Shown here piece by piece: positions 8,327 through 46,127 of a DNA stretch of 64,000 nucleotides; within the stretch, counting starts at the first letter, position 1; each line of letters begins with the position of its first letter. The position numbers and the translations under genes are program-made. Source of the stretch: an uncultured Verrucomicrobiota bacterium (GTDB taxonomy: Bacteria; Verrucomicrobiota; Kiritimatiellia; CAIKKV01; CAYSLU01); the NCBI GenBank assembly GCA_964431965.1, contig CAYSLU010000004.1:3824-67823 (forward strand). The letters are read 5' to 3'. The notes beneath the pieces were generated by a model. It was not told where the DNA came from. It ran no database searches and saw only the letters and a program-made list of their open reading frames with translations.

Positions 8327-10699
8327 CTACTTCTCCCGCCAGAGCACCACCGGCCCCATGAGCCCGCCCGTGCCCACCTCGTTGAGCCAGCCGCGCTCGC
8401 ACAGGATCGTGAACTGGTTGACGCCCGGCTTCACGGCCCCGGTCACGTCGAACAGCGCCGGATCGCAGTAGCCGGAGAAGCCGTCGATCAGATCGCCCTT
8501 CTCGTGCGGCCCGATCTTCTCCGGCACGGCGTACTTCACGTGCGTCCCGTTCACGAACAGCTTCGCGCTTCCGTCCGTGGCGCCGATCCACAGGAACAGG
8601 CGCTTGCCTTCCGGAGCGGCGGCCAGCTTCTGCGACGCGCGGTACACCATCCGTCCGGAGCGGCCCGAGGACGCGTCGGTCATCGTGAGGTGATGCCCGA
8701 GGGCCGACCAGGTCTCGCGCACCACGTGCGTCTTCGGCCAGTCCGCGTCGTCGTACTCCGGCGCAGCCCAGGGCAGCGACTCCGCCTCCGGGCCGGGGTT
8801 GTGCTTCCACTTCCACTCCGGCATGGGCGCCCCAAGGCGCACGTACTCACGCTCCATGCGCGAGGCGTCGCGGTAAGCGACGGCCAGGAAGCGGTCGGGG
8901 TACAGCAGGGTGCCGTACCGGCCTTGCACATAGGTCGAATCGGCCGGATCGCTGTAGCGGCGGACCATGTCTCGCACGCCCGAGCGCCAGATATCGTAGT
9001 CGGCCTCCAGCGTGCGGAGGTTCGCGGCGGCCCAGTCCCGGCGCATCTTCATGAACAGCTCGAACAGGGTCAGCGACTCGTCGATCAGCTTGACCCGCCG
9101 GTACTCGGGGACCGTGCGGCCGCGCGCCAGCGCCTCGTTGACCTGCGCCCGGGCGCTCGCCAGCACCTGGGTCGGGAACATGTGGAGATAGCCGTGCGAG
9201 TTGCCGGCATACTCGCCGCTGTCGGTCCAGGCGTGGTCCATGATGGTCCAATACCGGCCCATCGGCTCGGCCGCCGCGCCGTAGAAGCGCGCGTAGAGGT
9301 CGGCCAGAATGGCCTCCGGCTTCTCCTGCGGGTAGAAGCTCATCCGCACGCCCAGGTAATAGCCGGGCAGCATGGACTCCCACCCGCCCATGGTTTCGGG
9401 CATCCAGAAGGCGCAGTTGTTGCCGAGCATGATGGGGATGTCGGTTCCCCACTTGGTGATGAAGGGGTTGGGCGCGCTCAGCTCGCCCAGGTTCATGCCG
9501 TACCCGCGGAACGCCGTGCGCGGCGCGGCCTGGCCCCAGCCGCGCACCATGTCCAGCAGCCACGTCTGGTTGGGGTGGTTCGTCCACGTCATGGGGTGAT
9601 GCCGGTTGAAGTCGATCGGGGCCAGCATGGGGATGACGTTGGGATGCACCTTCTCCCGCGCCGGCGGCATCGAGTAGTTCACGTATATGTAGAGCCCGAA
9701 GAGCACGTCGGGGTACTTCTTCCCCACCCGCTCCGCCACCCGGTCGGCCAGGAGGATCAGGCGATCGGTGACGGACCACCGCCCGGCGGCCGGCTCCCAC
9801 ACCCGGGGCGAGGGATCATGCTTCATCTCCTCGGGGTCTTCGGTGGGCACCAGGTAATCGCCGGGGGACAGCGTGACCGAAGGCGAGTAGCTCACATCCA
9901 GGTTCGAAACGATCCGGTCGGCGATGGCGTCGGCCACATCCTGGCGTGTCCAGCGCAGGATGTAGGGATGGGGCTTGCCATCGACCTGCAGGCACCACTC
10001 CGGATGCTCGGCCCGCTGCTCCTTCGTGATGTAGCCCTCGAGCCCGTGCGAGCCCTGCACGTAGGTTCCGTTCATGCGGTTGCGCCGCAGGAAGTCGGCG
10101 CCCCCCTGCCACATGCCGCGGTACTCGGTGGCCGGCGCGAGCTTCTCGTCCGTCTCCGAAACGGCCAGCGCGGGAAGGCTGGGCACGCACTCGCCCAGCT
10201 CCGTGGGCATGTACCAGCGGCAGCCCAGGCGGTGGAGCAGCTCGTAGATCGCGTAGCTCGTCCCATACTCCGACTCGCCGTAGAGCCCGATCCCCTTCCG
10301 GCTGGCCACCACGCGGAAGCCGAACTTGCCGGCCTTCGAAATGCCGACCGGACCGAAGACCTTCTGCGCCGCGGCGCCGACGTAGACGGGCAGCCGCTTC
10401 TCGCCCGGCGGCACCCCCTCGACAACCTCGATCCTGGCTCCCGACATCTTGCCGAGGTAAAGCGCCAGGTCAGCCACCGAGTCGCGCAGCAGGCGACGCC
10501 GGGCGTCGGCTTCGATGAGCGGGTATGCCGTCGTCCGGGGGTTCAGGGGGCGGTCGTCGCCCTCCCAGGCCATGGCACCGGGCGGCACGACGATGACGCA
10601 CTTCGCCTCGCCCTTCTCCGCCAGCCGGAGCTCGGCTGCGCCGACGGCGTCACACGCCGCCGCCACCAGCATGAACACTACCGCGATGCATTTCGTCAT
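8327..10699 (-). CDS. DUF4838-like putative glycoside hydrolase with C-terminal GH2-type sugar-binding (galactose-binding-like) domain; paralog 1 of 3
   Basis: 790 aa. Signal peptide MTKCIAVVFMLVAAACDAVGAA. Conserved LHRLGCRWYMPT block shared with the ORFs at 13989 and 40088. C-terminal beta-sandwich (KLFVNGTHVKY...) resembles the GH2 N-terminal sugar-binding domain. Confidence 0.65.
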   Translation of the reverse strand: MTKCIAVVFMLVAAACDAVGAAELRLAEKGEAKCVIVVPPGAMAWEGDDRPLNPRTTAYPLIEADARRRLLRDSVADLALYLGKMSGARIEVVEGVPPGEKRLPVYVGAAAQKVFGPVGISKAGKFGFRVVASRKGIGLYGESEYGTSYAIYELLHRLGCRWYMPTELGECVPSLPALAVSETDEKLAPATEYRGMWQGGADFLRRNRMNGTYVQGSHGLEGYITKEQRAEHPEWCLQVDGKPHPYILRWTRQDVADAIADRIVSNLDVSYSPSVTLSPGDYLVPTEDPEEMKHDPSPRVWEPAAGRWSVTDRLILLADRVAERVGKKYPDVLFGLYIYVNYSMPPAREKVHPNVIPMLAPIDFNRHHPMTWTNHPNQTWLLDMVRGWGQAAPRTAFRGYGMNLGELSAPNPFITKWGTDIPIMLGNNCAFWMPETMGGWESMLPGYYLGVRMSFYPQEKPEAILADLYARFYGAAAEPMGRYWTIMDHAWTDSGEYAGNSHGYLHMFPTQVLASARAQVNEALARGRTVPEYRRVKLIDESLTLFELFMKMRRDWAAANLRTLEADYDIWRSGVRDMVRRYSDPADSTYVQGRYGTLLYPDRFLAVAYRDASRMEREYVRLGAPMPEWKWKHNPGPEAESLPWAAPEYDDADWPKTHVVRETWSALGHHLTMTDASSGRSGRMVYRASQKLAAAPEGKRLFLWIGATDGSAKLFVNGTHVKYAVPEKIGPHEKGDLIDGFSGYCDPALFDVTGAVKPGVNQFTILCERGWLNEVGTGGLMGPVVLWREK

Positions 10700-10776: not shown

Positions 10777-12777
10777 TCAGTTGACCATGATGCGGATGCC
10801 CCGCAACTCCTGGTAGTCGCGGAAGCCGCTGAGCGTGACACTCCGCTCGCCGATCTCGACCGTGAGCAGTCCGGCCTTCGACGTGCCATCCTCGCCGTAC
10901 ACCGTGACCGCCTGGCCGTTGCCGGCGTTGCCGAAGCGCCCCGTCACGGCTCCCGGGCCGCGGTTCGTCACGATGACGAACCGGTCGTCCGGCGCCGGCA
11001 CAAATCCGGACTGCAGCGCCGGCTTCAGCGCGCCGCCGAGGGCGAGCGTCCCGTTCGTCACGGACAAAGCGTCCCAGCCCGTTCCCGGCCCGTTGGTGCC
11101 CGCCAGCTCGAGCCGCAGCTCGGAGCCGGGCTGGAGGCTGACATCGCCGGTGATCGCGAAGACCCCCGCGGTGCCGATGCCGGGCGCGAGGGCTCCGCCG
11201 CTCTCAACGACGATCCCGTCGGAACCGCAGACGACGACACCCGAGCCCAGAAGGCTCCCCCTGTTGCGGACCCGCAATCCGGGCGCAAAGACGGACGGAA
11301 GCGCCTTGTTGGTGAGCACGAGCGCTGCGTCCTGGACGCCGTCGCCGACGGCGAACGCGGCGTCGTTGGTCACGGCCAGCCGGCCGGCGACCAAGACTCC
11401 ACCCTGCAGGCGCAGCGCGTTGTTCGTGGCCGCCGCGAGCAGGTTCACGCCGCGCACCCTGCCGCCCGCCGTGATGGTCAGCGTGTTATTGGTCGTGGCA
11501 GCGGAGCCAACGGACAGGCTCGCCCCGCCCACGTCCCAGAGCGAGTGGGTCCCGGTCACAAGGGCCGTGTTGCCCGTGGTGCCTCCGGTGTAGCCGACCG
11601 CGGAGGCGGCGGACGAGTGGAGGCGGCCGCCGCCGGAGATGATCAGGCCGTTCCCGGCCGCCGAGGCCGCCGCCCCGATGCGGATCGCGCCGGCATTGGT
11701 GACAGCCCCGTAGTCCTCGATGCGCACACGGTTGTTCGTTCCCTGGCCCACCACCAGGATCCCGGCGGCGAGGTCCCACAGCGATCCGGCGCCCGAGATC
11801 AGGCCGGTGCACGCAGTTGAGCCGCCGCGCGCGAAGTCCACGCCGCCCGAGGTGAACAGCTTCCCTCCGTTGGTGATCGTCAGCAGGGCGTTGACGGTCG
11901 CGCTCTCACCCAGAATGAAGGTCGCGACGCCCGTTACGACGCCGCTGTTCGCGATGATCGCCTGGTTGCCTCTCCGCTGTCCCCCCACCCGAAGGACCAG
12001 CGCATCGACCACGGAGCCGGAGTCCGTGACGACGAGCGTGTTCGAGTTATCCCCATTCGGGCCGTTGCCGATATCGAGGGTGCCAGCGGTGACGGTGCCA
12101 CCCTCCGAAACGATCAGCTGATTGAATGGGCTGCTCCTCCCGACGGCCACGCCGCCGGGCGCCACCAGCCGCCCGCCCCGGCATACGGCAACCCGGCCGG
12201 ACACGGAGCTCGCCGCCGTGTACCCCAGCGCGATCCCGCCGCTGTTGGAGAAGACCGCACTGCCGCTGACGCCCCGCCCGTCGACGAGCACCTCATTGCC
12301 GCATCCCGAATAGCTCACCCAGAAGCTGCCCACGCTCGAGCAGTGCGAGGTGACGCCCACCCCCCCGATCACGGAGAGCCGGTTGTTGGTGCTGCTGGCG
12401 ATGCTGTATCCGACAATGAAGTTGCCGGAGACCGTCAGCCGGCCCCCGTTGGTGACGACCACGTCATAGCCGGAGCCATTGACCACCAGGCCGCTGGCGC
12501 TGATGGAGGAGCCGTCCACCAGGACGGTGGATCGCCCGCCCGTCCCGGAGAAGTTGGCGATGCTGCCGTCAGCCCATCCGTCGAGCGGCGTGAGGCCGCT
12601 GGTGTTGGTCGTCCACCACGCATCCGCCGGGCTGGTGGTCCACCGCCCGTCTCCATGCTGGTAGCCGGCATTCGTCGCGGCGTCCCAGTATTGGCTGGCG
12701 GCCGACGCCGCGCAGACGGTCGATAGAAAGAGCAGAAGCGGCGCCAGCAGCCTTCGGCCGTTCATTTGGTTCTTCAT
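10777..12777 (-). CDS. Secreted beta-helix repeat protein (autotransporter-associated beta-strand repeat / PATR-like)
   Basis: 666 aa. Signal peptide MKNQMNGRRLLAPLLLFLSTVCAASAA. Low-complexity G/S/T/V-rich repeats with NTxTxG / GxLxxGxG periodicity. Start overlaps the LacI stop (4 nt). Confidence 0.65.
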   Translation of the reverse strand: MKNQMNGRRLLAPLLLFLSTVCAASAASQYWDAATNAGYQHGDGRWTTSPADAWWTTNTSGLTPLDGWADGSIANFSGTGGRSTVLVDGSSISASGLVVNGSGYDVVVTNGGRLTVSGNFIVGYSIASSTNNRLSVIGGVGVTSHCSSVGSFWVSYSGCGNEVLVDGRGVSGSAVFSNSGGIALGYTAASSVSGRVAVCRGGRLVAPGGVAVGRSSPFNQLIVSEGGTVTAGTLDIGNGPNGDNSNTLVVTDSGSVVDALVLRVGGQRRGNQAIIANSGVVTGVATFILGESATVNALLTITNGGKLFTSGGVDFARGGSTACTGLISGAGSLWDLAAGILVVGQGTNNRVRIEDYGAVTNAGAIRIGAAASAAGNGLIISGGGRLHSSAASAVGYTGGTTGNTALVTGTHSLWDVGGASLSVGSAATTNNTLTITAGGRVRGVNLLAAATNNALRLQGGVLVAGRLAVTNDAAFAVGDGVQDAALVLTNKALPSVFAPGLRVRNRGSLLGSGVVVCGSDGIVVESGGALAPGIGTAGVFAITGDVSLQPGSELRLELAGTNGPGTGWDALSVTNGTLALGGALKPALQSGFVPAPDDRFVIVTNRGPGAVTGRFGNAGNGQAVTVYGEDGTSKAGLLTVEIGERSVTLSGFRDYQELRGIRIMVN

Positions 12778-13850
12778 GCGTGCGTGGACTCCCGGACGAT
12801 CAGTTCCGCGGAACTCGTCAGCCGCCGAAAGGGGCCCGAACTCCGCCCGTGAATGCGATCCATCAACAGGCCGAATGCCTTCGCCCCGGCCAGGTCGTCC
12901 GCCGTGCTGACCGAGGTCAGCGGCATGACCCCGTAGCTGGCGAGCATGGAGTCGCCGGAGCCCGCAACGGCCACGTCACGGGGCACTCGCACGCCCAGAC
13001 GATGGAGCGCTCGGACCGCCAGCGAGGCCATGGCGTCAAATCCGATAACGGCATCGAATGAACCGAGGTGTCCGGCCAGGAACCGGCGGACCGCTTCGAC
13101 CAGCGGCTCGGGATCGGCGAACTCCCGGATCGCCGGACGGGCGACGCGCATGACCAGCGGAGCCGGGGCGCCAGCCCGCTTCAGCTCATCGCGCACGGCG
13201 GACTCGCGGACGGTGTTGATCCGTGCTTCGGGAATCGCGCGGGCCAGGCAGACGCGCCGCCGGCCGAGTTGGAGCAGGTGCCTGGCCTGGAGCCGCCCCA
13301 CGGCCTCATAGTCCACGCTGATGTCGTCGCACGGGAAATCGAGCAGGTTCGCGCCGTCGAAGGTGACCGCGGGGAAGCCGGACTGCACGAGGCGGCGCAG
13401 TTCCCCGTGCGGCCCCGGATCGACGGGATAGACCGCCAGGCCATCGACACCGCGGTCGATCAGGCGGCGGATGACCAGGTCCTCCGACTCCGAGTCGTTG
13501 TGGTGGGAACTCAAGATGACCGTGTAGCCGGATCCCTCGGCGGCCTCGGTCAGCCCGGCTGTTCGCGTGGCAATGGCTCCGGGCGCAACGACGCCGATGA
13601 CGTGGCTCACGCCCGCACGCAGAGCCCGCGCCGACAGGTTGGGGCGATAGCCGAGCGCGGCCGCCGCTTTCCGGATGCGCTGGCGGGTTGCCTCCGAGGC
13701 CCAGCAGTTCGGGCGGTCGTTCAGGACCACGCTGGCCGTAACGCTGCTGACCCCGGCCCGCTTCGCCACATCGGCCAAGGTAATCCGCCGGCCGTCGCCC
13801 CGCCGCCCGGCGCCGCTCGCGACAGGCTCTGCCTTCGAGCATCTTGCCAT
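12774..13850 (-). CDS. LacI family transcriptional regulator
   Basis: 358 aa. N-terminal HTH ITLADVAKRAGVSSVTASVVLN...RIRKAAAALGYRPN, followed by a periplasmic-binding-protein-like sugar-binding domain. Confidence 0.85.
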   Translation of the reverse strand: MARCSKAEPVASGAGRRGDGRRITLADVAKRAGVSSVTASVVLNDRPNCWASEATRQRIRKAAAALGYRPNLSARALRAGVSHVIGVVAPGAIATRTAGLTEAAEGSGYTVILSSHHNDSESEDLVIRRLIDRGVDGLAVYPVDPGPHGELRRLVQSGFPAVTFDGANLLDFPCDDISVDYEAVGRLQARHLLQLGRRRVCLARAIPEARINTVRESAVRDELKRAGAPAPLVMRVARPAIREFADPEPLVEAVRRFLAGHLGSFDAVIGFDAMASLAVRALHRLGVRVPRDVAVAGSGDSMLASYGVMPLTSVSTADDLAGAKAFGLLMDRIHGRSSGPFRRLTSSAELIVRESTHA

Positions 13851-13988: not shown

Positions 13989-16451
13989 TCAGTTCGCCGC
14001 ATACAGGAACGGCCGGCGGAACATGCCGCCGAGGTGGTGCTCGCAGTTGGCGCGGAGGGCGATGGTGTTCTTCCCCGGCTTGAGCTTGCCCGAGAGGTCC
14101 ACATCCCACTCAAACGCGTAGCTGTTGAGCCACCAGAGCTTGCCCTGCTTGCGGTAGGCGACTTCCTGCCCGTTGACGTAGAGCCAGCACTCGTTGAACA
14201 GGCCCGGGAAGAGCAAATGAACCTTCCCGTTCACCTGCGCGGCCGACAGCTCCACGTCCGTGCGGTACCACATGTCGCCCGTGAAGCTTTGCCGATCCGG
14301 ATCGCGGATCCCCTGGGCCTGGGCATACAGGTCCGCCCGGAGCATCTCCCACTCGTTGGTGTAGTCCTTGCGGCTTCGAAGCGTGAGCTGGTCCCGGCGG
14401 GCCTTCCAGTGGGTCAGATCCACGTCCTGGGTGGCGTACTTCCGCTCCACGCCGACGCGCTGCTTGTCGCGGCGGAACGCCCATTCGAGCGGGAGCTTGG
14501 CGATCAGGGTGCCATTGGTGCCGCCCACGAAGCCGGCCAGCCGGGCGTACTGCTGGACTTCGCCCGGCCACCAGGAGGGGCCGTGCTCGCCCATGCGGCG
14601 GTACGTCGTGAAGATGCCGTTCATGTCGGTCATGCTCTCGCGGACGGCCAGCGCCTTCTGGCCGAGCTTTGCGGCTTCGGTGTAGTTGCACTCCGAGGAC
14701 GCCTGCCGCACCATCCCGAGATAGCCGTCGAGGATATCGAAGCTCATGCGCGTGAACTTCATGCGCTCCAGAACCTGCTGTTCCTGGCGGGTGAGGTCGC
14801 CTTTGCCCTTGAGCGGAGCCACCAGCTTCTCGGCTTCCGCCAGGCTCTTCCGGCAGGTCTCGATCACCTCGGGCGTGTAGATGGCCGGGGCGGCGAAGTA
14901 CTCGTGCTCGGTAACGATGGTATCGGACCATGCCCGGTAAATGGCGCTCCAGTAGGTCTCCATCGGTCCCGCGGCCGGGCCGTAGAACTTCGGGTAGAAC
15001 TCCTTGAGCAGCGCATCGACGTCCTCGTCCGGGTTCCACATCAGGCGCCCGCGGAAGAAGAGGTTGAGGAACGTGGTGCCGATGGCGTTGCGGCTTTCCG
15101 TATTGACGCCCAGGATGCCGGCCTTGGCGTAGTGGGCGAAGTCCTGCTTCAGCCCCTGGTGACTGGGGTTCGGGATATCGCGCCAAACCAGCATGCCCTG
15201 GTCGTAGTCGTAGATGGCCAGGCGCCCCTGCATGATCTCGGACCATTTGTACACCATCGCCCGGTACTCCTGGCGCGGCGGGGAGTCCTCGTCATCCATG
15301 CCGTGGATGGGGTCGATGTCGATGGGGGCTAGCTCGCAGAAGAGCGACGGCTCCGCCTTCATTTCGCGCACCGGCGGAATCGTCATGTTGGCGTAAGCCA
15401 GGAACCCCAGCTTGCCGCCGCCAGCCGGGTACTGCTTCTGCAGGATGCGGGCGATGTTGTTGTACAGCTCCAGCATGGGATCGGTCACCGACCAGCGCAT
15501 CATGTACTTGTCCCACTGCAGCTTCATCAGCTCCACGTCCTTCGGATAGTCGGAGTCGTAGGAACCGTCTTCCATGCCGATGGAGATGCCCTGCCCCTTG
15601 GCAAAGTCGGGCTCAAGCTTTGCGGCGACATGCTCGGCCGTCCCCGGCGCGGTGATCGGGAAGTTGAACGTGCTCTTGGCGCCGGGGACATCGCGCGTGT
15701 ACCTGCCCAGGGCGTGGCCCGTGCCCGGGAAGCCGCGTCGGCCGGGGATCATCATGTTCCGCTTCTGGAACTCGGCCCGTCCGGCGTTGTCACCCACCCA
15801 GGAGATCCAGTACCCGCGGATTTCGAAGGGCGAGCCGTAGGTGTAATCGAGGTCGCCCAGCGCCAGCGTCTTCACCTCGGGGATGCACTCGCCGAAGTCG
15901 GTGGGGATGTACCAGCGGCACCCCCAGCGCCACAGCAGCTCGGCGACGGCGAAGTAGTGCGCCTGGTCATTGTTGCCGGCGATGTAGACGCGGGGCCCTT
16001 CGCGCAACAGCCCGATGGCGTCGGAGCCCAGGATGGGCTTCTGCTTGGCCGCCGCGCGGATCCGCTTGGCCAGATCGGGCTTGGCCTTCAGTGCTTCTTC
16101 GCCCACCAGGAGCACGGGCGTCCGGCCCTTCAGCGCCGCGTCAATCTCCTCGCGCGTGGCGGCCAGGCGGGGCCTGGCCCCCGTCATGAGATGGATGTAC
16201 TTCACCAGGTCACAGGCGGCCAGCCACTCGTCGTTGCGCGTGCCGCTCTTGTCGGCCCCGCGCGTCACGGCGCCATCCTTGCCCTTCGTCTCGGGCAGGC
16301 CGGCCTCGGGCGAAACCACCACCACGGCCTCGGTCCGGCCGTTGCTCGCGATGATGCACTCCCGCTCCGCCGCCCCCGCCATGCGCGGCACGGCGGCCAG
16401 GGCCGCCAGCGAAAGCACTACCCGACCGAACCGACGGATCGCCTGGCTCAT
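13989..16451 (-). CDS. DUF4838-like putative glycoside hydrolase with C-terminal GH2-type sugar-binding domain; paralog 2 of 3
   Basis: The track ORF is 13989..16895. The start was trimmed to the ATG at 16451 (MSQAIRRFGRVVLSLAALAAVPRMAGAAE, a signal peptide). Shares LLWRWGCRWYIPTDFGE and the overall architecture with 8327..10699. C-terminal end reads VHLLFPGLFNECWLYVNGQEV. Confidence 0.65.
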   Translation of the reverse strand: MSQAIRRFGRVVLSLAALAAVPRMAGAAERECIIASNGRTEAVVVVSPEAGLPETKGKDGAVTRGADKSGTRNDEWLAACDLVKYIHLMTGARPRLAATREEIDAALKGRTPVLLVGEEALKAKPDLAKRIRAAAKQKPILGSDAIGLLREGPRVYIAGNNDQAHYFAVAELLWRWGCRWYIPTDFGECIPEVKTLALGDLDYTYGSPFEIRGYWISWVGDNAGRAEFQKRNMMIPGRRGFPGTGHALGRYTRDVPGAKSTFNFPITAPGTAEHVAAKLEPDFAKGQGISIGMEDGSYDSDYPKDVELMKLQWDKYMMRWSVTDPMLELYNNIARILQKQYPAGGGKLGFLAYANMTIPPVREMKAEPSLFCELAPIDIDPIHGMDDEDSPPRQEYRAMVYKWSEIMQGRLAIYDYDQGMLVWRDIPNPSHQGLKQDFAHYAKAGILGVNTESRNAIGTTFLNLFFRGRLMWNPDEDVDALLKEFYPKFYGPAAGPMETYWSAIYRAWSDTIVTEHEYFAAPAIYTPEVIETCRKSLAEAEKLVAPLKGKGDLTRQEQQVLERMKFTRMSFDILDGYLGMVRQASSECNYTEAAKLGQKALAVRESMTDMNGIFTTYRRMGEHGPSWWPGEVQQYARLAGFVGGTNGTLIAKLPLEWAFRRDKQRVGVERKYATQDVDLTHWKARRDQLTLRSRKDYTNEWEMLRADLYAQAQGIRDPDRQSFTGDMWYRTDVELSAAQVNGKVHLLFPGLFNECWLYVNGQEVAYRKQGKLWWLNSYAFEWDVDLSGKLKPGKNTIALRANCEHHLGGMFRRPFLYAAN

Positions 16452-36437: not shown

Positions 36438-36810
36438 GCGCGTGGAGGGACAGGCGACTACTCTGCGGTCCCTTCAGTTCGTGCCGCTCGGCGGCACCGC
36501 GAAGGGCTTGTGCCCGGACACGGTGGCTGTCCTGGCAGACGGATACGACCAGATGCAGGAGAGCGGATACTTCTCGAAGTCCTGAAGGGCGGCGGCGATC
36601 TCTTGGCGGTGGTCGGGCATTTGAGAAGCGGGAGGGTTGATTTTCGATTGTTGACTGGCGGAGACAGTATCTTCTTTTCTACCCTCTTGAGAGGGTAATA
36701 CCCTATCTCCTCAGACGGCGGGATGATAGGTAGTTCCGTACGCAGTTCAATGGGTAGTACCTGATTCCACGCTCCGTATTACCCAATAAATTACCGATTA
36801 ACATTACCGA

Positions 36811-38259: not shown

Positions 38260-39960
38260 TCATGCGTGGTCAAGGAGCACGTCGCCGGGGATCCAGCAGT
38301 GCGCGCCGCTCGCATGCTCCGCGAAGGGCTCGAGTTCGAGCGCGCCGCCGGCGGACCAGCGGAGTCGCCACCGGCCGGCATCCGACTCCACGGCGGGCAG
38401 CTCCGCCGGTCCGGCGCCCATCGAGAGGAGCCAGAGCCCGGCCAGCCGCTTCGGCGCCGCGCCAGACCACGTGTACGCATGGTCCCAGCGCCACTCGCGC
38501 TCACCCGCCGCGCCGCAGGACGACCGCACGTCTCCTTCGAGCGGTCGGAAGGCGAGCGTGAGGACAGACGCGCCATAGTCCAGCAGCACGCGCTGCCAGC
38601 CGCCGGTTTCCTCGGCCGCCGGTGAACTCACCGTGGCGGACACCAGGCGGAACCGGTCAGTCACACACGGCCAGCCGGGCGCAACGGCATCCAAGCGGCG
38701 AAGCGCCAGGAAGACCGATCCTCGGCGAAAGCCGAACGTGCGACCCACGGCCGCCTCGGGGCAGTCGTCCGAGAGCACGCACGACGGTCGGTCGTGCCGC
38801 CCGCGCGCCGGCAGGGCGCGCACAGTCCCGCGCTCCTCTGCTTCCCACTGCAGGTAGCCCCAGTCGCCGCGCCGGTGGTGGAACGCGACCGGCATGCTCT
38901 GCCAGTGCAGGCCCCACCCGGTGTGGTCGGTGTCCTCCATCACGGGATACCGCGACATCACGCCGATCCGCCAGTCAGGCTCAACCTGGGCCAGCGCGAC
39001 GGCGCCGTCGTAGCAGGCGATCTCCACGGCGCCCCCCGGCGCGCGAGCCGCTCCGAGCCGCTCGCGGAGCCCGCGCCGGTGCGCCAGCGCGGCCATGCAC
39101 TGGAAGCTCGCGCCGGCCTCGCGGACGGCCGCATCGACCATCAGGTCGCGGTACGGCCGGCACCACCCCTCTCGGCGCTCAGGCGTCCAGGGCGACTCCT
39201 GCATCGAGTAGCACCGGATGGTCGGAACGCGCGGCCCGCCCGCATAGGTCATGTCGATGTCGTCCAGCTCGCGCAGCAGGGCCTCGACGACGGCCGCCGT
39301 TTCGGGCGGCAGACGCTTCGCCAGCAGGAGCAGCGCGACCAGCTCGCCCTGCGCAACCTTGGCGTACAGGTCGCTCAGGTGCTCGCCCCAGCCCCACTCG
39401 CGGTCGCGCCAGTAGGCCACCGCCCGCGCCATCATCTCCTCAACGGCGGGGTCGTTTCGCTCCTCGAACAGCTCCATCAGCAGCCAGCGGCAGACCAGAT
39501 CGCCGAGGCACATGTTCGGATAGCGCAGCCGGCTCTCGTCCAGCCCGTCGGTCTGCCGGCGGAACCAGTGGACGCAGTCGCGCAGCATCTCGTCCAGCAC
39601 CGCCAGATCGTCCGGCGCCAGCAGGCGCCCGGACTCGATCCGCAGCATCAGAAGGCCCAGCCCGGTGAAGAAGCCGCTGTTGGTGTCGGTAACCCCGACG
39701 TCCTCCCACTTCCACCAGAAGCAGCCGCGCTTATCGCCGTCCCGCACTTGCGCCTCTCGGATCCGGCGCAGAGCGCGGCCGGCCGGCACCCGATCCAAAG
39801 CGCCGTCAATGCCGGCGGATGCCAGCCGCCACGCGCTGGCCCGGATGATGTGGACGGGATCGGGCTTGCCGGTCTTGCCGTCCTCGTGCTGAACCCAGAG
39901 CCCCACGTCCTCATCCCAGCCGGCCAGGTAGGACACCGATGGATCCGACGGTCGCGTCAT
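38260..39960 (-). CDS. Hypothetical protein (Trp-rich, possibly alpha/alpha-toroid glycan-processing enzyme)
   Basis: 566 aa ORF with normal composition and no signal peptide. Function not recognised. Confidence 0.45.
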   Translation of the reverse strand: MTRPSDPSVSYLAGWDEDVGLWVQHEDGKTGKPDPVHIIRASAWRLASAGIDGALDRVPAGRALRRIREAQVRDGDKRGCFWWKWEDVGVTDTNSGFFTGLGLLMLRIESGRLLAPDDLAVLDEMLRDCVHWFRRQTDGLDESRLRYPNMCLGDLVCRWLLMELFEERNDPAVEEMMARAVAYWRDREWGWGEHLSDLYAKVAQGELVALLLLAKRLPPETAAVVEALLRELDDIDMTYAGGPRVPTIRCYSMQESPWTPERREGWCRPYRDLMVDAAVREAGASFQCMAALAHRRGLRERLGAARAPGGAVEIACYDGAVALAQVEPDWRIGVMSRYPVMEDTDHTGWGLHWQSMPVAFHHRRGDWGYLQWEAEERGTVRALPARGRHDRPSCVLSDDCPEAAVGRTFGFRRGSVFLALRRLDAVAPGWPCVTDRFRLVSATVSSPAAEETGGWQRVLLDYGASVLTLAFRPLEGDVRSSCGAAGEREWRWDHAYTWSGAAPKRLAGLWLLSMGAGPAELPAVESDAGRWRLRWSAGGALELEPFAEHASGAHCWIPGDVLLDHA

Positions 39961-39974: not shown

Positions 39975-40070
39975 CGGGCGGCGAGGCCTCCGCCCCTCCC
40001 GCCGCGCGACTCTCGGCTGCCGCGCGATCTCAATCCCTCAACGGGCCAGCCCGCGGCCTCGCCGGGCCTG
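39975..40070 (+). repeat. REP-like element, degenerate copy D
   Basis: GGGCGGCGAGGCCTCCGCCCCTCCCGCCG...CAGCCCGCGGCCTCGCCGGGCCTG aligns with the three copies at 42.7-43.5 kb. Lies in the intergenic region between two minus-strand genes. Confidence 0.5.
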
Positions 40071-40087: not shown

Positions 40088-42643
40088 TCACCGCGGGCGG
40101 TCGGCCGCACCGCTGATCCGGATCTCGCGCTCGAGCCACAGCCGTTTCTCATCCCGTGGCACGGACGCGCGAGCGGTCTCAACGGAAACGCGCAGCATGC
40201 CGTCCGCCAGCCTCACGCTCCCGCCGATGATCGCCGGGGCCACGTACCGGTCGTCTACGACGCAGCCCGCCGACGGCAGCGCCACCCGCAGCGCAGTCGT
40301 GCTCGCGGGCAGCCGGCCAACCAGCACGCGACGCGGCTTGCCTGCCTTCTGGCCCTTCACGCGCGCGGGCACCTCATTGGAGGGGGAGAACGCCACCGCG
40401 GTCCAGACACCGGAGGTTGACATCGCCTCAATCGCGACGCCGGTGACGTTGGTGCCGACCGCGTATTCCGTGACGTGCGCACAGCGCGTGAAGTCGTTGC
40501 CCGGCAGCCGGCTGATCGCCTGCGAGCCGACGGTGATGCGGATCACGCCGTCCTCCGTCAGCTCCACGCGCTTGCTCGCGCTCTGCTTCACGCTCGATCC
40601 GGAAACATGATCCGTGTCCATCGTCACAGACGTTTCGGTCGGCACGCCCGAGACCATGCCGTAGGTCCAGGATGGATACACCCGCTCCACGGCTCCGCCG
40701 ACCGCGGGCCATCCTTCTTCGTCGGTGTTGGACGACACCCGCAGCAGGGGCCGGCCGCGGAACTCGATCTGCCGGATGCGCAGGCCGATGGCCGACGCAA
40801 CGCGGACCGCGACGTCGCCGCGCCGGAGCGTAACCAGCGGCCCTCCGTGCGAGGCGAGGAACAGCTCGTGGTAGTGGCGGTATGCGCCCCACTCGCGCGG
40901 GCTCGCCTGGCGCGCGTGCTGGCAAAGCCGCAGCGCGCGGTCGAACGTCCAGCCGCCCGCCGCCACGTTGGTGAGGTCCGGGCGGATCAGCCGCCCGTCG
41001 GCCTCGGCCAGCGGGCCGGGCCGCCACAGGTCGAACGCGTCCAGGCTGACGGCGGCCTCCTCGACCCGGCGGGCATAGGGCTCGCGGCCGGCGGAGAGCC
41101 GGCGCGCGTCGTCCATGAGCCCGCGCTGCTTCGCCATGCGCTCGCGCCCGAGGTACGCGCGGGCGATCGGCCCGCGCTCAGCGAACTCGTCGAGGTGGAC
41201 CTGGTTCGTGAGCGCCGTAGCGGCGGCGTCCTCCAGGTCGGCCACGTACGCGAGGAGCGGCGCGGCGGCCGGCCCATAGTAGCCCGCGCAGAACTCGCGC
41301 ACGAGCGCATCCGGATCGCCCGCCGGATCCCACAGGAGGTGGCGCCAGACGTAGTTCTTCAGCACCACGAGATCGCCGCCGGTCGATACGTAGTTGCCCT
41401 GGATGATCAGGCCGCCGACGCCCGACTCGGCGTAGTACCGCATGTTCGCGGCAATCGAGCGGATGACCGGAAACGGGTACATGAAGTTGTCGCCGAAGTT
41501 GACGGCGTAGTCCCAGACGTGCACGCGACCCGGCGCCAGCTGGCCCCACTTCCGCAGGTTGGCCGCGTACCCCGCGTTGTCCGGACAGTCGCGAACTCCG
41601 TGGATGATGCAGTGCCGCAGGTGGGGGACGCGGGCGACGACGTTCGAGCGCGGCACGGTGAGCGTCGGCGGCGCCTCCATGCTCATGTACGGCATGGTCC
41701 CCACCTGGATGCCCGGAAACTGCGCGTCGAGGATCTCGGCCACGCGGTTGATCATCCGGAGGTTCGTGCCGCCGATGATTCCGCGCCGCTTGCCCTCCTT
41801 GTCCGTCCATCCCTCCTCGAGATAGATCGCCTCGCACCGCTCGCACTCGCACGCGCCGCCGTAGGCGTCGCCCATGCCGGCCATGTAGATCCAGTCGCGC
41901 ACGTTGCCCTTGCGCTGGCGCACCTGCGCGGCCAGCGCGGCCGCCACGGCGTCGGCGATGCCGGGCGCGCTGTAGCAGAAGTGGATCTGGTTCGCCGCGC
42001 GGCGGCCGGTCTTGCGACTGAACGGCAGGATCTCGGGATGGGAGGCCGCGTACGACTCGAGCAGCGCGTTGAGCGTGTGCCCGCCCGTCCAATCCTGCGT
42101 GCTGAAGCTGCGCGCCTTGAAGCGGAAGCCTCCGTCCTTGGACTCCGCCTCGCGGTTCATGAGCAGCATCTGCCGGAAGGGCGGGCGCTTCACCGTCTCG
42201 CCGGGATCCAGCCGGACCGTCGGCGAGCGCGGCACATCCTCCTCGGTCGCGGACCACCAGCGGCACCCGAGCCGGTCCTCGAGGAACGCGAACACGCCGA
42301 ACCGCACGCCGGTTCGCGTAGCGCCGCCGATTTCGAGGCTCTCCTCCGATACCCGGATCGCATAGGCGTCGCCCGAGCCCGTCCAGTCGCGCCCGTCGGG
42401 ATAGCCGACGCGGATGCTCCGGCCCGCCGCCGGTGGCTCGTTCGTGCGCACGGCGAACGCGGCGCCGGATATTCGCTCCAGGTACTGCGCCAGGTTGGTG
42501 GCCGCCTCCGCGTGCCCCCTCGCCGCGAAGATCGGGCACGCGTTCGTCCCGTTCTCGACCAGCACGAGGCCGGGACCGGGCGCGGCCAGCGCCGTCGCGG
42601 CGACTGTGGCGATGACGATTGCAGTCTTGGCTATCAGATGCAT
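40088..42643 (-). CDS. DUF4838-like putative glycoside hydrolase; paralog 3 of 3
   Basis: The track ORF is 40088..42892. Start trimmed to the ATG at 42643 (MHLIAKTAIVIATVAATALAAPG, a signal peptide). The upstream extension is a translation of REP repeats. Conserved FAFLEDRLGCRWW block. Cys-rich segment GGACECERCEAIY. Confidence 0.65.
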   Translation of the reverse strand: MHLIAKTAIVIATVAATALAAPGPGLVLVENGTNACPIFAARGHAEAATNLAQYLERISGAAFAVRTNEPPAAGRSIRVGYPDGRDWTGSGDAYAIRVSEESLEIGGATRTGVRFGVFAFLEDRLGCRWWSATEEDVPRSPTVRLDPGETVKRPPFRQMLLMNREAESKDGGFRFKARSFSTQDWTGGHTLNALLESYAASHPEILPFSRKTGRRAANQIHFCYSAPGIADAVAAALAAQVRQRKGNVRDWIYMAGMGDAYGGACECERCEAIYLEEGWTDKEGKRRGIIGGTNLRMINRVAEILDAQFPGIQVGTMPYMSMEAPPTLTVPRSNVVARVPHLRHCIIHGVRDCPDNAGYAANLRKWGQLAPGRVHVWDYAVNFGDNFMYPFPVIRSIAANMRYYAESGVGGLIIQGNYVSTGGDLVVLKNYVWRHLLWDPAGDPDALVREFCAGYYGPAAAPLLAYVADLEDAAATALTNQVHLDEFAERGPIARAYLGRERMAKQRGLMDDARRLSAGREPYARRVEEAAVSLDAFDLWRPGPLAEADGRLIRPDLTNVAAGGWTFDRALRLCQHARQASPREWGAYRHYHELFLASHGGPLVTLRRGDVAVRVASAIGLRIRQIEFRGRPLLRVSSNTDEEGWPAVGGAVERVYPSWTYGMVSGVPTETSVTMDTDHVSGSSVKQSASKRVELTEDGVIRITVGSQAISRLPGNDFTRCAHVTEYAVGTNVTGVAIEAMSTSGVWTAVAFSPSNEVPARVKGQKAGKPRRVLVGRLPASTTALRVALPSAGCVVDDRYVAPAIIGGSVRLADGMLRVSVETARASVPRDEKRLWLEREIRISGAADRPR

Positions 42644-42687: not shown

Positions 42688-42780
42688 CGGGCGGCGGGGC
42701 CGCCGCCCCTCCCGCCGTTCGGCTCTCCGCAACCGCGGATCTCACCCCTCGCCGGGACGGCCCGTGGCCCCGCGGGCCTG
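42688..42780 (+). repeat. REP-like element copy A (about 95 bp, two GC-rich hairpins)
   Basis: CGGGCGGCGGGGCCGCCGCCCCTCCCGCCGTTCGGCTCTCCGCAACCGCGGATCTCACCCCTCGCCGGGACGGCCCGTGGCCCCGCGGGCCTG. Hairpin 1 is GGCGGCGG/CCGCCGCC. Hairpin 2 is GGCCCG...CGGGCC. Confidence 0.7.
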
Positions 42781-42826: not shown

Positions 42827-42920
42827 CGGGCGGCGGGGCCGCCGCCCCTCCCGCCGTGCGGCTCTCCGCAACCGCGCGATCTCAGCCCTCACCGGGACGG
42901 CCCGCGGCCTCGCGGGCCTG
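42827..42920 (+). repeat. REP-like element copy B
   Basis: Near-identical to copy A, same orientation, 46 bp downstream of it. Confidence 0.7.
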
Positions 42921-42955: not shown

Positions 42956-43429
42956 TCACCACCGCAGTTCGTTCAGCGTTCCCTGATATGCCCATTCTTC
43001 CGGTTGCGTAACCAACCCCCGACGCACTGGATTCCGCATCACGTAATCCCATTTCATTTCGTAGTGGTGCACGTGTCGGAGCTGCGTATCCCAGCAGTCG
43101 CGCATCCATAACGGCCGAACCTCGGGGATCTCTCGGCTGACCATGCGTTTCCAGAATCCGACCCATTCCTTGACGCCTTCCGTGTCCGGCTGTGCCGGGG
43201 AACAGAAGAGATGCACATGCTCCGGCATCACGACGTAGCGTCCGACACTCCAGCGGCGCGCCGCCGCCCACTGGCTTCTCAGAAGCTGATGCATCCGGTC
43301 GTTCGCCAGGACAGGCCGCCGATCCTTGCTGCAAACCGTCACGAACACGATGACCGGCTGATTCCACCGTTCGATGTTCGGCATGTGCGCCGGACGGTGA
43401 CGCCGCTGTTGTGTGCCTTGCTCAGTCAT
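42956..43429 (-). CDS. REP-associated tyrosine transposase (RAYT, IS200/IS605-like Y1 transposase family)
   Basis: HuH motif VMPEHVHLFCSP. C-terminal CWDTQLRHVHHYEMKWDYVMRNPVRRGLV resembles the RAYT helix region (FWDHxIR...DYIHYNPVKHGLV). The track ORF extends to 43513 through REP copy C. The likely start is the internal Met (MTEQ..., about 43429) or MPNIERW (about 43384). Exact coordinate is uncertain by a few nt. Confidence 0.7.
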   Translation of the reverse strand: MTEQGTQQRRHRPAHMPNIERWNQPVIVFVTVCSKDRRPVLANDRMHQLLRSQWAAARRWSVGRYVVMPEHVHLFCSPAQPDTEGVKEWVGFWKRMVSREIPEVRPLWMRDCWDTQLRHVHHYEMKWDYVMRNPVRRGLVTQPEEWAYQGTLNELRW

Positions 43430-43455
43430 GTGCCCAAACTTACGCCTGTCACTCT

Positions 43456-43548
43456 CGGGCGGCGGGGCCGCCGCCCCTCCCGCCGTTCGGCGCTCCGCAA
43501 CCGCGGATCTCACCCCTCACCGGGACGGCCCGTGGCCCCGCGGGCCTC
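43456..43548 (+). repeat. REP-like element copy C
   Basis: CGGGCGGCGGGGCCGCCGCCCCTCCCGCCGTTCGGCGCTCCGCAACCGCGGATCTCACCCCTCACCGGGACGGCCCGTGGCCCCGCGGGCCT. Same orientation as A and B. Lies immediately upstream of the RAYT start. Confidence 0.7.
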
Positions 43549-43550
43549 GG

Positions 43551-46127
43551 CTACGGCCCCGACGCCGACGGGCCGATGTAGGGCTTCAGGCGATAGGTCA
43601 GCGCCACGGACGCCACGTTGGTCGGCGCGTCCACAAGGCGCACCAGCACGGTGCTGTTGCTGCCCCGCATGACCGGCATCGGCTGCTCGAACTCCACACG
43701 GCATCCGTAGCCGACGCGGTCGATCTCGACCGCGGAGGCGCGGACCGGGGCCGCTCCGAGCGGGCCGATCACGCGGCCGGCTTCGTTCAGCGCGAAGACG
43801 CGGGTCGCCGGCTTCGGCTTCCGACTCTTCCGCTCCTTCTCGGTCGCATCCGCGAACGGAATCATCTCATAGGCTTCGCGCACCCGGCCCCGCAGCTGGC
43901 TCCAGCCGCCGTAGAGGCTGAACAGCCCATCGGCTGCCGACGGCTCGAGCCGCACGCCGCAGACGATCGAATCCTCCCGGAACTCATAGCGGCGATAGAC
44001 CTGCACCGAGGACTGGCGGACCTCGCCCGAGCTGGTCACCACGTTGGTCGCGAGCCGCGCGTCTACGTGCTCGCTGTTGGCCGACACGAGCGGCTGGCCG
44101 TCTTCGGTCGTGCCGACGACCGAGTGAATGTGAAATCCGCGCCACTGGGACGGATGCATCCCGCCGCCGTAGGCGCCGTTGAGGGTGGCGGCGATGACCT
44201 GTCCCTTGGCGGGGACGTGAACCTGGCAGAGCATGCCGCCGCCGTAGCCGACCTGGCCGTGGAAGCCCTCTCCCACCCACGTGGGCGACAGGCGGCCGTG
44301 GTACGTGACCGCGTAGTACGTCGGCCGCCGCGCCGCAAAAAACTCGTTGGCGCCGTTGACGGAGGCCGTCAGGTTCGACCCGCCGATGCCCTTCCACGCA
44401 TAGGCCCCCGGCTGCCACATGTCGTACGTGCCGCCGGCCACTCCGCCCGCCGTGCGCGAACTCCACGGGGCCGCATCGAGCCCGTCGGCATAGACATAGC
44501 TGTAGAAACTGAGCACGCCGGCGTAGGCATCCGCGAACCGGCGATCGCCCAGGTCGGCGAGGACCGCCTGCCAGCCGCGCAGCACGTAGCTGCCGTAGTT
44601 CTCGTCGTACCCGAAACTCTCCTGGATGCCCCCGGACGGACCGATGCCCGCGCGATCGCCGAAGCCGCCGTCCGCGAACCGGTCCCAGTAGGCGTCGAAC
44701 AGTTCCTTCTGGAGCGGGTCGCCGCTGGCCTCCGCGCAGTAGCGGAGCGCCTGCACGAGGCTCGCGAGGGCGTTCCCGTTCACCAGCTCGCCGGTCCGGC
44801 AGAATGCCAGCCGGTCGCCGACCTGGATGATGAACTCGCGGATCGCCGCCTTCGCCGGCTCCGGCGCGTCCGACTGCTGGAGGATCCGCCACGCCGGCCG
44901 GTGGTAGAAGAAGCTGTAACACCCCATCTCGTACGCCAGGTTCTTCATCGGCCCGTGGGCGATCACGTCGCCGGGCCCCATGGCGTTCAGGCCGTTCGCC
45001 ATATCGCGCAGCGCGGCGCGCAGGGCCAGCGGGCTCCGGTTGGCCGGATAGCTGTGCATGATGCGGTCGGCCGAGTGGCGCGCGGGAGTCTGGTGCGAGC
45101 CCGGCGAGACGTAGTTCGTTCGCGCGGGCAGGTCGGCCGGCAGCTCGGCCGGATCCGCAGGCAGGGCGCGCAGCCAGTCGTGGAAGCGTACCTGGTAGGG
45201 ATGCCAGAACGTTCGTCCGTCGTGGTAGATGGCCCCCCCCTGCAGGGCGCGCGCCGTCTGCGCGTCCGGCGCGAACACGGCGTTGACCGTGTTGTTGGGC
45301 CGCTTGGCCGGCGGATCGCTGAACATGCCGAAGCAGGCGGCCGCGAGGAAGTCGCCCGGGCCGGGCGAAACGTCGAGCGTCAGCACCTGGTCGTCGTACT
45401 GGCCCGGGGCGGCGAAGTAGCCCAGCTTCTGGAGCGCGCCGTCGTACTTCAGCTCGATGGGCTGCCCCTGCGGATCGCGCAGCACGAACGAGCGGGACGC
45501 CGGCCAGTCCATTTCCAGAAACAGGATCCACACCTTCGTCGCGCCGCGCGGCACGTACAGGTAGCTACGGCGGTACTGGTCCCCGCGCCCGTGCAGCCAG
45601 TAGCCGGTGCTGGCCAGGCCATACGGCCGCACGGGGTCCAGGCGCAGGGTCACGAAATGATCGGGAACGCCCGTCACGAGCACGCGGTATGCGCCGGCCG
45701 GGCCCGCGGGCACGGGATAGCGCAGCAGGCGCTTCGGCACAGCCGCCAGGCGCGCCGGATCGGAGAGCAGGCTCCAGCGCACCGCCGGCTCCAGCCCGCG
45801 CGAGTAGCACGTGGCGTAGTACCACGCCTCATGGTCCCAGCCCGCCGAAGCCGGCTGGTAGCCGCCGCCGGGGATCCCGTCGTCCGGAACCACCTCGCGC
45901 ACCAGCAGCCTGCCGTCGGGCGCGTAGATCTTCACCAGAAGCTCCGCCGGACCGCGGGCCACATGGTTGATGTCCTGAATGTCGAGGCTGACCGTGAAAC
46001 CGGCGCCGGAGGGATTAGGCACAAAGGCTTCGAAGCCGTCGTATAGACGGCGCGCGGGCTCGTCCGCCCCCGCGGCCGTCACGGCCAGCCCGGCCATGGC
46101 CACCGCCAGGCACGTCAAGCGCCTCAC
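43551..46127 (-). CDS. Large secreted protein of unknown function (paralog B; family of 16651..19374)
   Basis: 858 aa. Signal peptide MRRLTCLAVAMAGLAVTAAGA (GTG start overlapping the GntR stop, GTGA). Conserved blocks shared with paralog A (GWDHEAWYY, SYLYVPRGAT, NGANEFFAARR, MHPSQWRGFHIHS, TSSGEVRQSS). Confidence 0.7.
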   Translation of the reverse strand: MRRLTCLAVAMAGLAVTAAGADEPARRLYDGFEAFVPNPSGAGFTVSLDIQDINHVARGPAELLVKIYAPDGRLLVREVVPDDGIPGGGYQPASAGWDHEAWYYATCYSRGLEPAVRWSLLSDPARLAAVPKRLLRYPVPAGPAGAYRVLVTGVPDHFVTLRLDPVRPYGLASTGYWLHGRGDQYRRSYLYVPRGATKVWILFLEMDWPASRSFVLRDPQGQPIELKYDGALQKLGYFAAPGQYDDQVLTLDVSPGPGDFLAAACFGMFSDPPAKRPNNTVNAVFAPDAQTARALQGGAIYHDGRTFWHPYQVRFHDWLRALPADPAELPADLPARTNYVSPGSHQTPARHSADRIMHSYPANRSPLALRAALRDMANGLNAMGPGDVIAHGPMKNLAYEMGCYSFFYHRPAWRILQQSDAPEPAKAAIREFIIQVGDRLAFCRTGELVNGNALASLVQALRYCAEASGDPLQKELFDAYWDRFADGGFGDRAGIGPSGGIQESFGYDENYGSYVLRGWQAVLADLGDRRFADAYAGVLSFYSYVYADGLDAAPWSSRTAGGVAGGTYDMWQPGAYAWKGIGGSNLTASVNGANEFFAARRPTYYAVTYHGRLSPTWVGEGFHGQVGYGGGMLCQVHVPAKGQVIAATLNGAYGGGMHPSQWRGFHIHSVVGTTEDGQPLVSANSEHVDARLATNVVTSSGEVRQSSVQVYRRYEFREDSIVCGVRLEPSAADGLFSLYGGWSQLRGRVREAYEMIPFADATEKERKSRKPKPATRVFALNEAGRVIGPLGAAPVRASAVEIDRVGYGCRVEFEQPMPVMRGSNSTVLVRLVDAPTNVASVALTYRLKPYIGPSASGP

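Follow-up and report, generated by a model that had tools for sequence, protein, structure and literature searches.

Two loci encoding U and DUF4838 proteins

A stretch of 64,000 nucleotides from an uncultured Verrucomicrobiota bacterium (contig CAYSLU010000004.1 of assembly GCA_964431965.1, positions 3,824 to 67,823 of the forward strand), hereafter the window, encodes two paralogous members of an unannotated family of secreted proteins, designated U1 and U2, and three proteins with a DUF4838 domain, designated D1, D2 and D3. The predicted structure makes the U family a good candidate for a new family of sugar-degrading, lyase-like carbohydrate-active enzymes (CAZymes), and in one clade of the family the U gene is recurrently found next to a DUF4838 gene. 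The G+C content of the window is 68-73% (~69% overall), so that long spurious open reading frames (ORFs) are frequent on both strands. The first-pass annotation of the window described five secreted ORFs, and their coordinates and strands, their coding-type G+C content at the third codon position and their signal-like starts all hold: U1 is encoded at 16651..19374 on the plus strand (907 residues), and U2 at 43551..46127 (858 residues, start codon GTG), D1 at 8327..10699 (790 residues), D2 at 13989..16451 (820 residues) and D3 at 40088..42643 (851 residues) on the minus strand. The G+C fractions at the first, second and third codon positions of the five ORFs (GC1 ~0.65, GC2 ~0.5 and GC3 ~0.91-0.93) follow the pattern of genuine genes, and signal-peptide-like N-termini are present in all five.

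The D2–U1 pair and the U2–D3 pair are separated by ~15 kb of unrelated genes (~23-38 kb) and therefore lie in two separate loci, A and B; a single module spanning 8-46 kb is rejected. Each U gene had been thought to lie directly beside a DUF4838 gene. This is true of locus A, where U1 is divergent from D2 across a 199-bp spacer, but not of locus B, where U2 and D3 are not contiguous. The 907-bp gap between them holds an ORF resembling IS200/Y1 transposases and REP-associated tyrosine transposases (RAYT-like; 42956..43513, minus strand; weak match to PF01797, E 3.9e-4, below the gathering score), together with repeats of ~95 nt that resemble repetitive extragenic palindromic (REP) elements. Three of these repeats (~43456-43548, 42827-42920 and 42688-42780) flank the RAYT-like ORF, and a fourth copy (~39975-40065) is intergenic. 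The element is GC-rich and contains hairpins, and its four intergenic copies in the window, as against 0 expected, have a mean column identity of 84%.

D1, D2 and D3 all exceed the gathering score of the Pfam family PF16126 (26.6 bits), with 109.3 bits (E 2.8e-31), 84.2 bits (E 1.2e-23) and 179.2 bits (E 1.5e-52), respectively. The LGCRW(Y/W) block noticed earlier is found in all three proteins as xGCRW(Y/W) variants, namely LGCRWY, WGCRWY and LGCRWW. D1 and D2 are 24% identical over their full length (BLASTP E 5e-38), whereas either of them aligns with D3 only in the DUF4838 core, with 23-29% identity. The C-terminal ~380 residues of D3 differ from those of D1 and D2 and give no GH2-like signal. 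The C-terminal GH2-like sandwich that the first-pass annotation assigned to all three proteins is retained for D2 (Glyco_hydro_2_N, PF02837, E 2.6e-7) but not for D3; for D1 the support is indirect, its alignment with D2 extending to the C-terminus. A pairwise identity of just 23-29% argues against a recent local expansion, and the description of an expanded paralog family is overstated; D1, D2 and D3 represent ancient and deeply diverged subfamilies. The D3-type subfamily comprises more than 100 full-length homologue clusters of ~815-870 residues, some of which carry GH20b or GH67N-like N-terminal domains, and its members are named at most 'DUF4838 domain-containing protein'.

On the minus strand, locus B consists of a DUF2961 gene, a gene for a giant G8 protein, a regulatory gene, U2, the RAYT-like ORF with its REP-like repeats, D3 and a gene for a protein of 566 residues, in this order. 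The regulator (46124..47221, minus strand) consists of an N-terminal GntR winged-helix domain (PF00392, E 8.8e-12, residues 20-82) and a C-terminal sugar-binding domain of the periplasmic-binding-protein (PBP)/LacI type (PF13377, E 4e-11, residues 249-355), an architecture that we take to be AraR-like. The TGA stop codon of the regulatory gene overlaps the GTG start codon of U2 as GTGA at 46124-46127. The giant G8 protein (47282..52624, minus strand) is a secreted protein of ~1780 residues, the start position of which was reassigned and the sole recognisable part of which is the N-terminal G8 domain (PF10162, E 6e-13). The DUF2961 gene (52675..54198, minus strand; PF11175, E 3.2e-44), whose product we assume to belong to GH172, heads the gene string; its frame was assigned from GC3, and it is masked in the plain ORF list by a spurious ORF of 1006 residues. 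The 566-residue protein (38260..39960, minus strand), whose gene adjoins the U2/D3 set, has no signal peptide and no match in Pfam or NCBIfam.

D2 is the first gene of the long minus-strand gene string of locus A. It is directly followed by a LacI-family regulatory gene (12774..13850; PF00356 and PF13377), a gene for a protein of 666 residues (10777..12777) with a signal-like N-terminus and no Pfam or NCBIfam match above noise, and D1. The string continues with a GH28-like gene (6828-8324), the ATG of which abuts the D1 stop codon, an unannotated gene for 338 residues (5688-6704), and genes for a heparinase II/III-like protein (3676-5769), a GH2 protein (1977-3692) and a sulfatase (466-1980), the four named families being assigned by Pfam. 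Beyond U1 lie genes for a Kelch/He_PIG/cadherin-like protein (19460-21016, minus strand) and a transporter of the major facilitator superfamily (MFS; 21451-23142, plus strand), both also assigned by Pfam. A search of the D2–U1 spacer for a LacI-type operator palindrome gave just one weak GC-rich palindrome, which is uninformative. The 666-residue and 566-residue proteins show no similarity to each other and are rejected as a third paralogous pair, and the same applies to the LacI and GntR regulators.

The genes between the two loci comprise a cluster at ~24561-30427 encoding an acyl carrier protein, a ketosynthase, an AMP-dependent ligase, a hexapeptide acyltransferase and a B12-binding radical SAM enzyme, together with Band7, WG-repeat, amidohydrolase and Fic genes. 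The G+C content peaks at 76% at 26-28 kb, within the stretch of this cluster, and dips to 59.8% at 36001-38000, as compared with ~69% elsewhere, around the Fic-domain gene (36811-37854, minus strand). The DNA of this dip may have been acquired horizontally.

The U family and its predicted architecture

U1 and U2 are 43% identical from end to end (702 bits, E = 0), and in this check, which had been fixed beforehand, the match extends well beyond low-complexity stretches. As the first-pass annotation had it, they match no recognised family: Pfam, NCBIfam and a phmmer search against PDB sequences give no match. A word-indexed search retrieves at least 191 homologues, all of which are unnamed or 'hypothetical', the labelled ones belonging to Planctomycetota (Gemmataceae and Brocadiia) and Lentisphaerae. 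An exhaustive hidden Markov model search of 1.84 billion representatives yields 354 matches at E <= 1e-3, again all 'hypothetical', including many fragments and about a dozen full-length clusters at 50% identity. In species-representative genomes, 41 U loci are found, nearly all of them in the Planctomycetes–Verrucomicrobia–Chlamydiae (PVC) group, spanning Planctomycetota, Verrucomicrobiota (among them Kiritimatiellia, Opitutales and Puniceicoccaceae) and Lentisphaerae (among them Victivallis). The closest loci, with 63% identity, are in Verrucomicrobiota and Kiritimatiellia metagenome-assembled genomes. Long forms of U have 1050-1170 residues, and some of them carry a C-terminal module resembling the carbohydrate-binding module (CBM) family CBM9. 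A sister group of ~950-1050 residues shows homology to U along its full length (767 columns; hhalign E 4.7e-91); its members are all 'hypothetical', and a search for annotated domains gives just a weak DUF6807 match in 2 of 27 sequences. U is thus a rare, wholly unannotated family, nearly restricted to PVC bacteria, in which no member has a name and none is represented in Pfam, NCBIfam or PDB. This comparison covers the CAZy families with a Pfam model or a structure, to which GH187 does not belong.

The sole U locus labelled Actinomycetota (L041, 10001-12459) has its gene split over several overlapping frames, which suggests frameshifts or poor quality in the assembly, or else mis-binning of the contig. 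Five loci (L005, L008, L009, L020 and L022) have tandem or nearby duplicate U genes and no DUF4838 neighbour, and therefore duplication is a recurrent feature of the U family. One member of the sister group (L048) is encoded beside the gene of a GntR regulator and a gene resembling fucose isomerase, and one fragment is labelled Gemmatimonadota.

The AlphaFold2 model of U2, built from a 62-sequence alignment, has a mean predicted local distance difference test (pLDDT) score of 91.5 and a predicted template modelling (pTM) score of 0.90. It consists of a signal helix, two beta-sandwiches with a helical insert, a domain of ~10 helices and a large beta-sandwich, in this order; the paired sandwiches span residues ~30-282, the helices ~350-545 and the large sandwich ~585-851. 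The predicted signal peptide comprises residues 1-21 (U2 numbering is used throughout). The N-terminal double jelly roll (residues ~25-345; 46055-45093), the helical insert of which contains the near-invariant WDHEAWYY motif, resembles CBMs, including an alginate-binding CBM, in a fold search and is made of CBM/GOLD-like jelly rolls. The helical domain (residues ~350-560; 45080-44448) is read as an incomplete alpha/alpha toroid, and it is followed by a beta-supersandwich (residues ~575-851; 44405-43575), so that the predicted model has the architecture of a class of polysaccharide lyases (PLs). The top Foldseek match is PL8 (2wda, E 1.7e-8), followed by PL33, PL17 and PL35. A structure comparison likewise gives the PL15 oligo-alginate lyase (3a0o) a score of 16.7, followed by a glycosaminoglycan (GAG) lyase (8khv, 16.1), PL17 (9irq, 16.1), PL35 (9o3q, 15.8), heparinase II (3e7j, 15.7), heparinase III (4fnv, 15.5), PL8 chondroitinase AC (1hm2, 15.2), PL40 (9vtk, 14.9), xanthan lyase (1j0m, 14.7) and dermatan-sulfate epimerase (6hzn, 14.1). 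With alpha/alpha-toroid and beta-sandwich lyases on top, the predicted fold is in keeping with the accessory lyase suggested earlier.

The conservation of individual residues was assessed in 50 sequences of the U family and its sister group, which go down to ~18-20% identity. Nineteen columns are invariant across this superfamily. Among the polar residues, the N-domain, which carries an invariant acidic cluster, has D52, N54, D82 and D83 as invariant positions; the helical domain has N452 and Y511, the linker R558, and the sandwich Y604 and Y605. D98, D354, R410, R439, D470, R483, E503, W578, Y609, W662, R712 and E754 are near-invariant, and E595 is invariant and H610 conserved within the U family only. 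Lyases of this class have a catalytic Tyr (base/acid), an Asn/Gln/Arg neutraliser and usually a His, which line the cleft between toroid and sandwich. By their positions in the sequence, N452 and Y511, an Asn...Tyr pair of the toroid with a spacing of ~55-60 residues, may together with R558 resemble this set as known from PL8, PL15, PL17 and PL21, and we infer that they are candidate catalytic residues.

E595 and the near-invariant E754 are conserved acids of the sandwich, and they raise the alternative that U is a glycoside hydrolase with its site in the C-terminal supersandwich, as in GH174, or a member of another beta-rich CAZy family such as GH187. A hydrolase of this kind would depolymerise a sulfated fucan-like glycan or another neutral or sulfated glycan, and DUF4838, GH2 and sulfatase enzymes would trim the products. 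Since the fold search with the N-domain does not return GH174, the GH174 match lies in the C-terminal part of U. Both GH174 and GH187 have been described as beta-sheet-dominated folds in Planctomycetota and Verrucomicrobiota (PMC12534559; PMC11685898), and the U1 locus contains a sulfatase gene. However, the mutarotase-like supersandwich is a generic CAZyme module, the same sandwich being present in PL8-type lyases, and invariant polar residues are packed most densely in the helical domain and not in the sandwich. The U profile finds neither of the GH174 sequences 8jd7 and 9k1g at E <= 10, no fucosidase families (GH29, GH95 and GH141) are seen in the annotated neighbourhoods, and no Bacteroidota members of U are seen, even though GH174 and GH187 were founded on enzymes from flavobacteria. 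On these grounds a hydrolase is unlikely, and a lyase-type scaffold remains the preferred reading of the model.

Gene neighbourhood of U in PVC genomes

All-against-all clustering of the ORFs flanking U in the 41 genome loci has shown that DUF4838 is the most recurrent neighbour and the only strongly recurrent family, being present in 10 of the 41 loci, followed by GntR-type regulators in five. Within 1.5 kb of U there are 11 DUF4838 ORFs; at the density of the outer flanks, in which two occur, 1.7 would be expected (Poisson p ~2e-6; the 41 loci are phylogenetically non-independent and represent roughly six or seven lineages). The DUF4838-adjacent cases are found in Verrucomicrobiota/Kiritimatiellia, Pirellulaceae, Brocadiia and Phycisphaeraceae, with the identity of U falling from 63% to 42%. 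Orthologues of D3 adjoin U in L001-L004, L007, L010, L013, L015, L029, L033 and L042-L046, the last five being contigs from an exact protein look-up that are additional to the 41 loci. The U stop codon overlaps or abuts the DUF4838 start codon in L042/L043, L044, L045 and L046, and the RAYT-like ORF of the window occupies exactly this junction, where the two genes directly overlap in relatives.

A four-gene order, consisting of U (~880 residues), DUF4838, a G8 protein (~670-700 residues) and a long U (~1020-1100 residues), is found in L001, L002/L042, L010, L045 and L046, which amount to about five independent contigs. The G8 proteins encoded in L001, L002, L010, L042, L045 and L046 are homologues of the giant protein at 47282-52624. 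In the closest relatives of the window, the same GntR+PBP regulator lies ahead of the cassette, as does a divergent homologue of the 566-residue protein; orthologues of the latter adjoin the GntR gene in L001, L042 and L043 (E 1e-124 to 1e-133). The orthologous regulatory gene keeps the 4-nt overlap with U in L042 and L043; the overlap of the regulatory gene with U2, which the first-pass annotation described as translational coupling, is thus real in the window and kept in relatives. Locus B of the window has the same gene set as the cassette, rearranged and interrupted by the RAYT/REP insertion.

In a neighbour-joining tree, the DUF4838-adjacent U proteins are concentrated in the clade of U2, with L029 and L033 in addition, and U1 belongs to a different clade. 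The closest relatives of U1 are in L037, where the contig ends early, and in L027, where the flanks are intact. There is no DUF4838 gene within 10 kb in L027, but a Kelch homologue is near the U1-like gene. An MFS homologue is near U in L035, and L029 and L033 share a divergent arrangement like that of U1 and D2. Because DUF4838 is absent from the flanks of L027 and the contig of L037 is truncated, the U1/D2 pairing is weakly supported.

It is conceivable that the adjacency of U and DUF4838 is functionally meaningless, both being abundant CAZyme-like genes of PVC bacteria that meet in sugar-utilisation regions. This explanation, which mainly concerns U1/D2, draws on the 31 of 41 U loci with no DUF4838 within 10 kb, on three distant D3-type homologues (37-40% identity), none of which has U within 7 kb (3/3), on the flanks of L027, and on the placement of D2 and D3 in very different DUF4838 subgroups. 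Against it stand the excess of adjacent DUF4838 ORFs over expectation, the maintenance of the pairing in four groups of bacteria over the whole range of U identity, the overlapping start and stop codons in several lineages and the same four-gene order on about five contigs, and chance meeting is accordingly improbable. The U–DUF4838 module is real but facultative and clade-specific, not universal. The repeated pairing noticed in the first-pass annotation is no accident of this window, and the interpretation given there is partly supported.

A proposed lyase-like enzyme and its relation to known systems

Among the major degraders of recalcitrant anionic and sulfated glycans are PVC bacteria, whose secreted proteome is in large part unannotated. 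The preferred reading is that U1 and U2 would be secreted CAZymes with a lyase-type scaffold and two CBM-like domains, the helical domain and the beta-supersandwich together forming a catalytic architecture like that of PL8, PL12, PL15, PL17, PL21, PL33, PL35 and dermatan-sulfate epimerase. U would cleave a uronate-containing anionic glycan by beta-elimination, or would otherwise act at C5 of the uronate, and the chemistry would be carried out by a Tyr/Asn/Arg set for which Y511, N452 and R558 are candidates. In the U2 clade, a GH20-like DUF4838 glycosidase and a G8 protein may be co-transcribed with U and would process the products, and the GntR+PBP regulator would sense a sugar and control the cassette. 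Beta-elimination followed by trimming by glycosidases is the most economical mechanism. The statement as a whole, from uronate cleavage to a cassette under this regulator, is held with moderate confidence, and that U is a carbohydrate-active enzyme is held more confidently than that it is a lyase. The existence and conservation of the family, its fold, the conserved synteny and the signal peptides belong to what the analysis shows, whereas lyase chemistry, the catalytic residues, a substrate of uronate or HexNAc nature and co-regulation are inferred.

A link to carbohydrates is supported by the CBM9-like extension of some long forms and by the likeness of the N-domain to CBMs. The gene context, with the sugar regulators and the DUF2961 gene of the window loci, also speaks for the preferred reading. 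An acidic, possibly sulfated substrate would be in keeping with the sulfatase, heparinase II/III-like, GH28 and GH2 genes of locus A. As to the first-pass suggestion of a sulfated or sialylated glycan, the sole hints are the sulfatase and the heparinase II/III-like gene in the U1 locus.

Several observations weigh against the lyase reading. Pfam searches with 50 U members at E <= 0.1 and E <= 5 give no weak lyase matches, and the U-family profile finds nothing at E <= 10 in an hmmsearch against all PDB sequences. An hhalign comparison of the U profile with a 19-sequence profile of the heparinase II/III-like protein of the window gives a Prob of 0.35%, and the comparison with that protein itself likewise shows no relation. 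CAZy families are defined by sequence, and similarity to an existing CAZy PL family is absent for the families with a Pfam model or a structure in the Pfam, NCBIfam, PDB-sequence and hhalign comparisons, and the relationship of U to lyases, as judged from the model, appears to be one of architecture only. The assignment of the catalytic residues, made by position in the sequence, is guesswork. No unsaturated-uronate hydrolase (GH88 or GH105) is seen in the annotated neighbourhoods. The loci with no DUF4838 gene nearby also count here; many U genes, in Gemmataceae and elsewhere, are surrounded by unrelated housekeeping genes, and the large Gemmataceae/Isosphaeraceae-type clade has no DUF4838 neighbour. 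Finally, the helical domain contains no invariant His in the 50 sequences, so that the typical catalytic His of PL8, PL15, PL17 and PL21 is left with no invariant counterpart.

The lack of an invariant His also speaks for readings in which U would not cleave its glycan at all, but would either epimerise uronate at C5, as dermatan-sulfate epimerase does, or be a secreted, non-catalytic protein that binds glycans or acts as a scaffold and so offers substrate to DUF4838. The two CBM-like domains and the optional CBM9 modules are in line with such a role, and a binding protein was also proposed in the first-pass annotation. However, 19 columns that stay invariant at ~20% identity, with Asn, Tyr, Arg and Asp in all three regions, are more enzyme-like than lectin-like, secreted epimerases are unusual in catabolic gene strings, and the tandem arrangement of U and long U in degradative cassettes fits depolymerases of different specificities. 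A non-cleaving U is hence rather improbable.

In a broader and more tentative proposal, U and its sister group of ~1000 residues would represent a new family of lyases, or of enzymes acting at C5 of uronate, with a His-less Asn/Tyr/Arg triad and an obligatory double jelly roll. Together with D3-type DUF4838 and G8 proteins, they might form a PVC-specific three-enzyme cassette for an anionic glycan of the N-acetylhexosamine (HexNAc)/uronate type that has no described pathway; examples would be GAG-like, algal, cyanobacterial and bacterial exopolymers. We regard this proposal as possible, with the balance somewhat against it. What the analysis provides is a defined family with a confident predicted structure and candidate catalytic residues, and a conserved set of partners, namely DUF4838, the G8 protein and the GntR+PBP regulator. 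Should U turn out to be a lyase or a hydrolase, it would add a CAZy family and would help to assign a substrate to one of the many uncharacterised DUF4838 clusters, the known activities of DUF4838 being those of GH163 and GH185 only.

The first-pass annotation regarded the activity of the module as undescribed, which does not apply to its DUF4838 part. DUF4838 is the catalytic domain of GH163, the founder of which, BT1035, has complex N-glycans as substrates for its endo-beta-N-acetylglucosaminidase activity, and of GH185, the founder of which, Sp_0475, is a 6-sulfo-beta-GlcNAcase of the exo type (PMC10570127). The domains of both families are TIM barrels distantly like those of GH20, Sp_0475, which has D309 among its active-site residues, uses substrate-assisted catalysis, and the substrates are of the beta-GlcNAc type (PMC10570127). 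D1, D2 and D3 are like these enzymes in passing PF16126, and D3-type relatives in carrying GH20b/GH67N-like N-domains; with the mutual identity of 23-29%, the likeness is through the shared domain. The sequence-similarity network of DUF4838 contains many further uncharacterised clusters (PMC10570127), and therefore neither membership of GH163 or GH185 nor the specificity of these families can be assumed for D1, D2 and D3.

The endo-alpha-1,3-fucanases of GH174 (8JD7 and 9K1G) share fold similarity with one domain of U only, and no sequence match. They have 450-510 residues, and descriptions of them give a beta-sheet-dominated fold and mention no toroid, whereas U has a helical domain; the catalytic residues of the GH174 enzyme Fun174A are D119, E120 and E218. 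The lyases of PL15, PL17, PL12 and PL21 (3A0O, 3E7J and 4FNV) have a His in their catalytic His/Tyr set. U shares 7-10% identity with them over aligned residues and gives no Hepar_II_III_C signal in Pfam. Its helical domain of ~10 helices is judged to be shorter than theirs, and, unlike them, it has an N-terminal double jelly roll with the invariant residues D52, N54, D82 and D83.

The GAG, hyaluronan and xanthan lyases of PL8, PL33 and PL35 use an Asn/Tyr/Arg(/His) set for beta-elimination. These enzymes (2WDA, 1HM2, 8R70 and 9O3Q) are the best Foldseek matches of U (E 1.7e-8 to 1e-5, probability 1.0) and share with it the order of toroid and sandwich, and the invariant N452, Y511 and R558 of U lie in the corresponding region. 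The TM-scores are just 0.3-0.47, there is no sequence similarity, and the equivalence of residues is by position and not in three dimensions. U does not amount to a new kind of biology; it adds a new branch to an enzyme architecture that is well known, in a familiar gene-cluster context like that of a polysaccharide utilisation locus (PUL-like).

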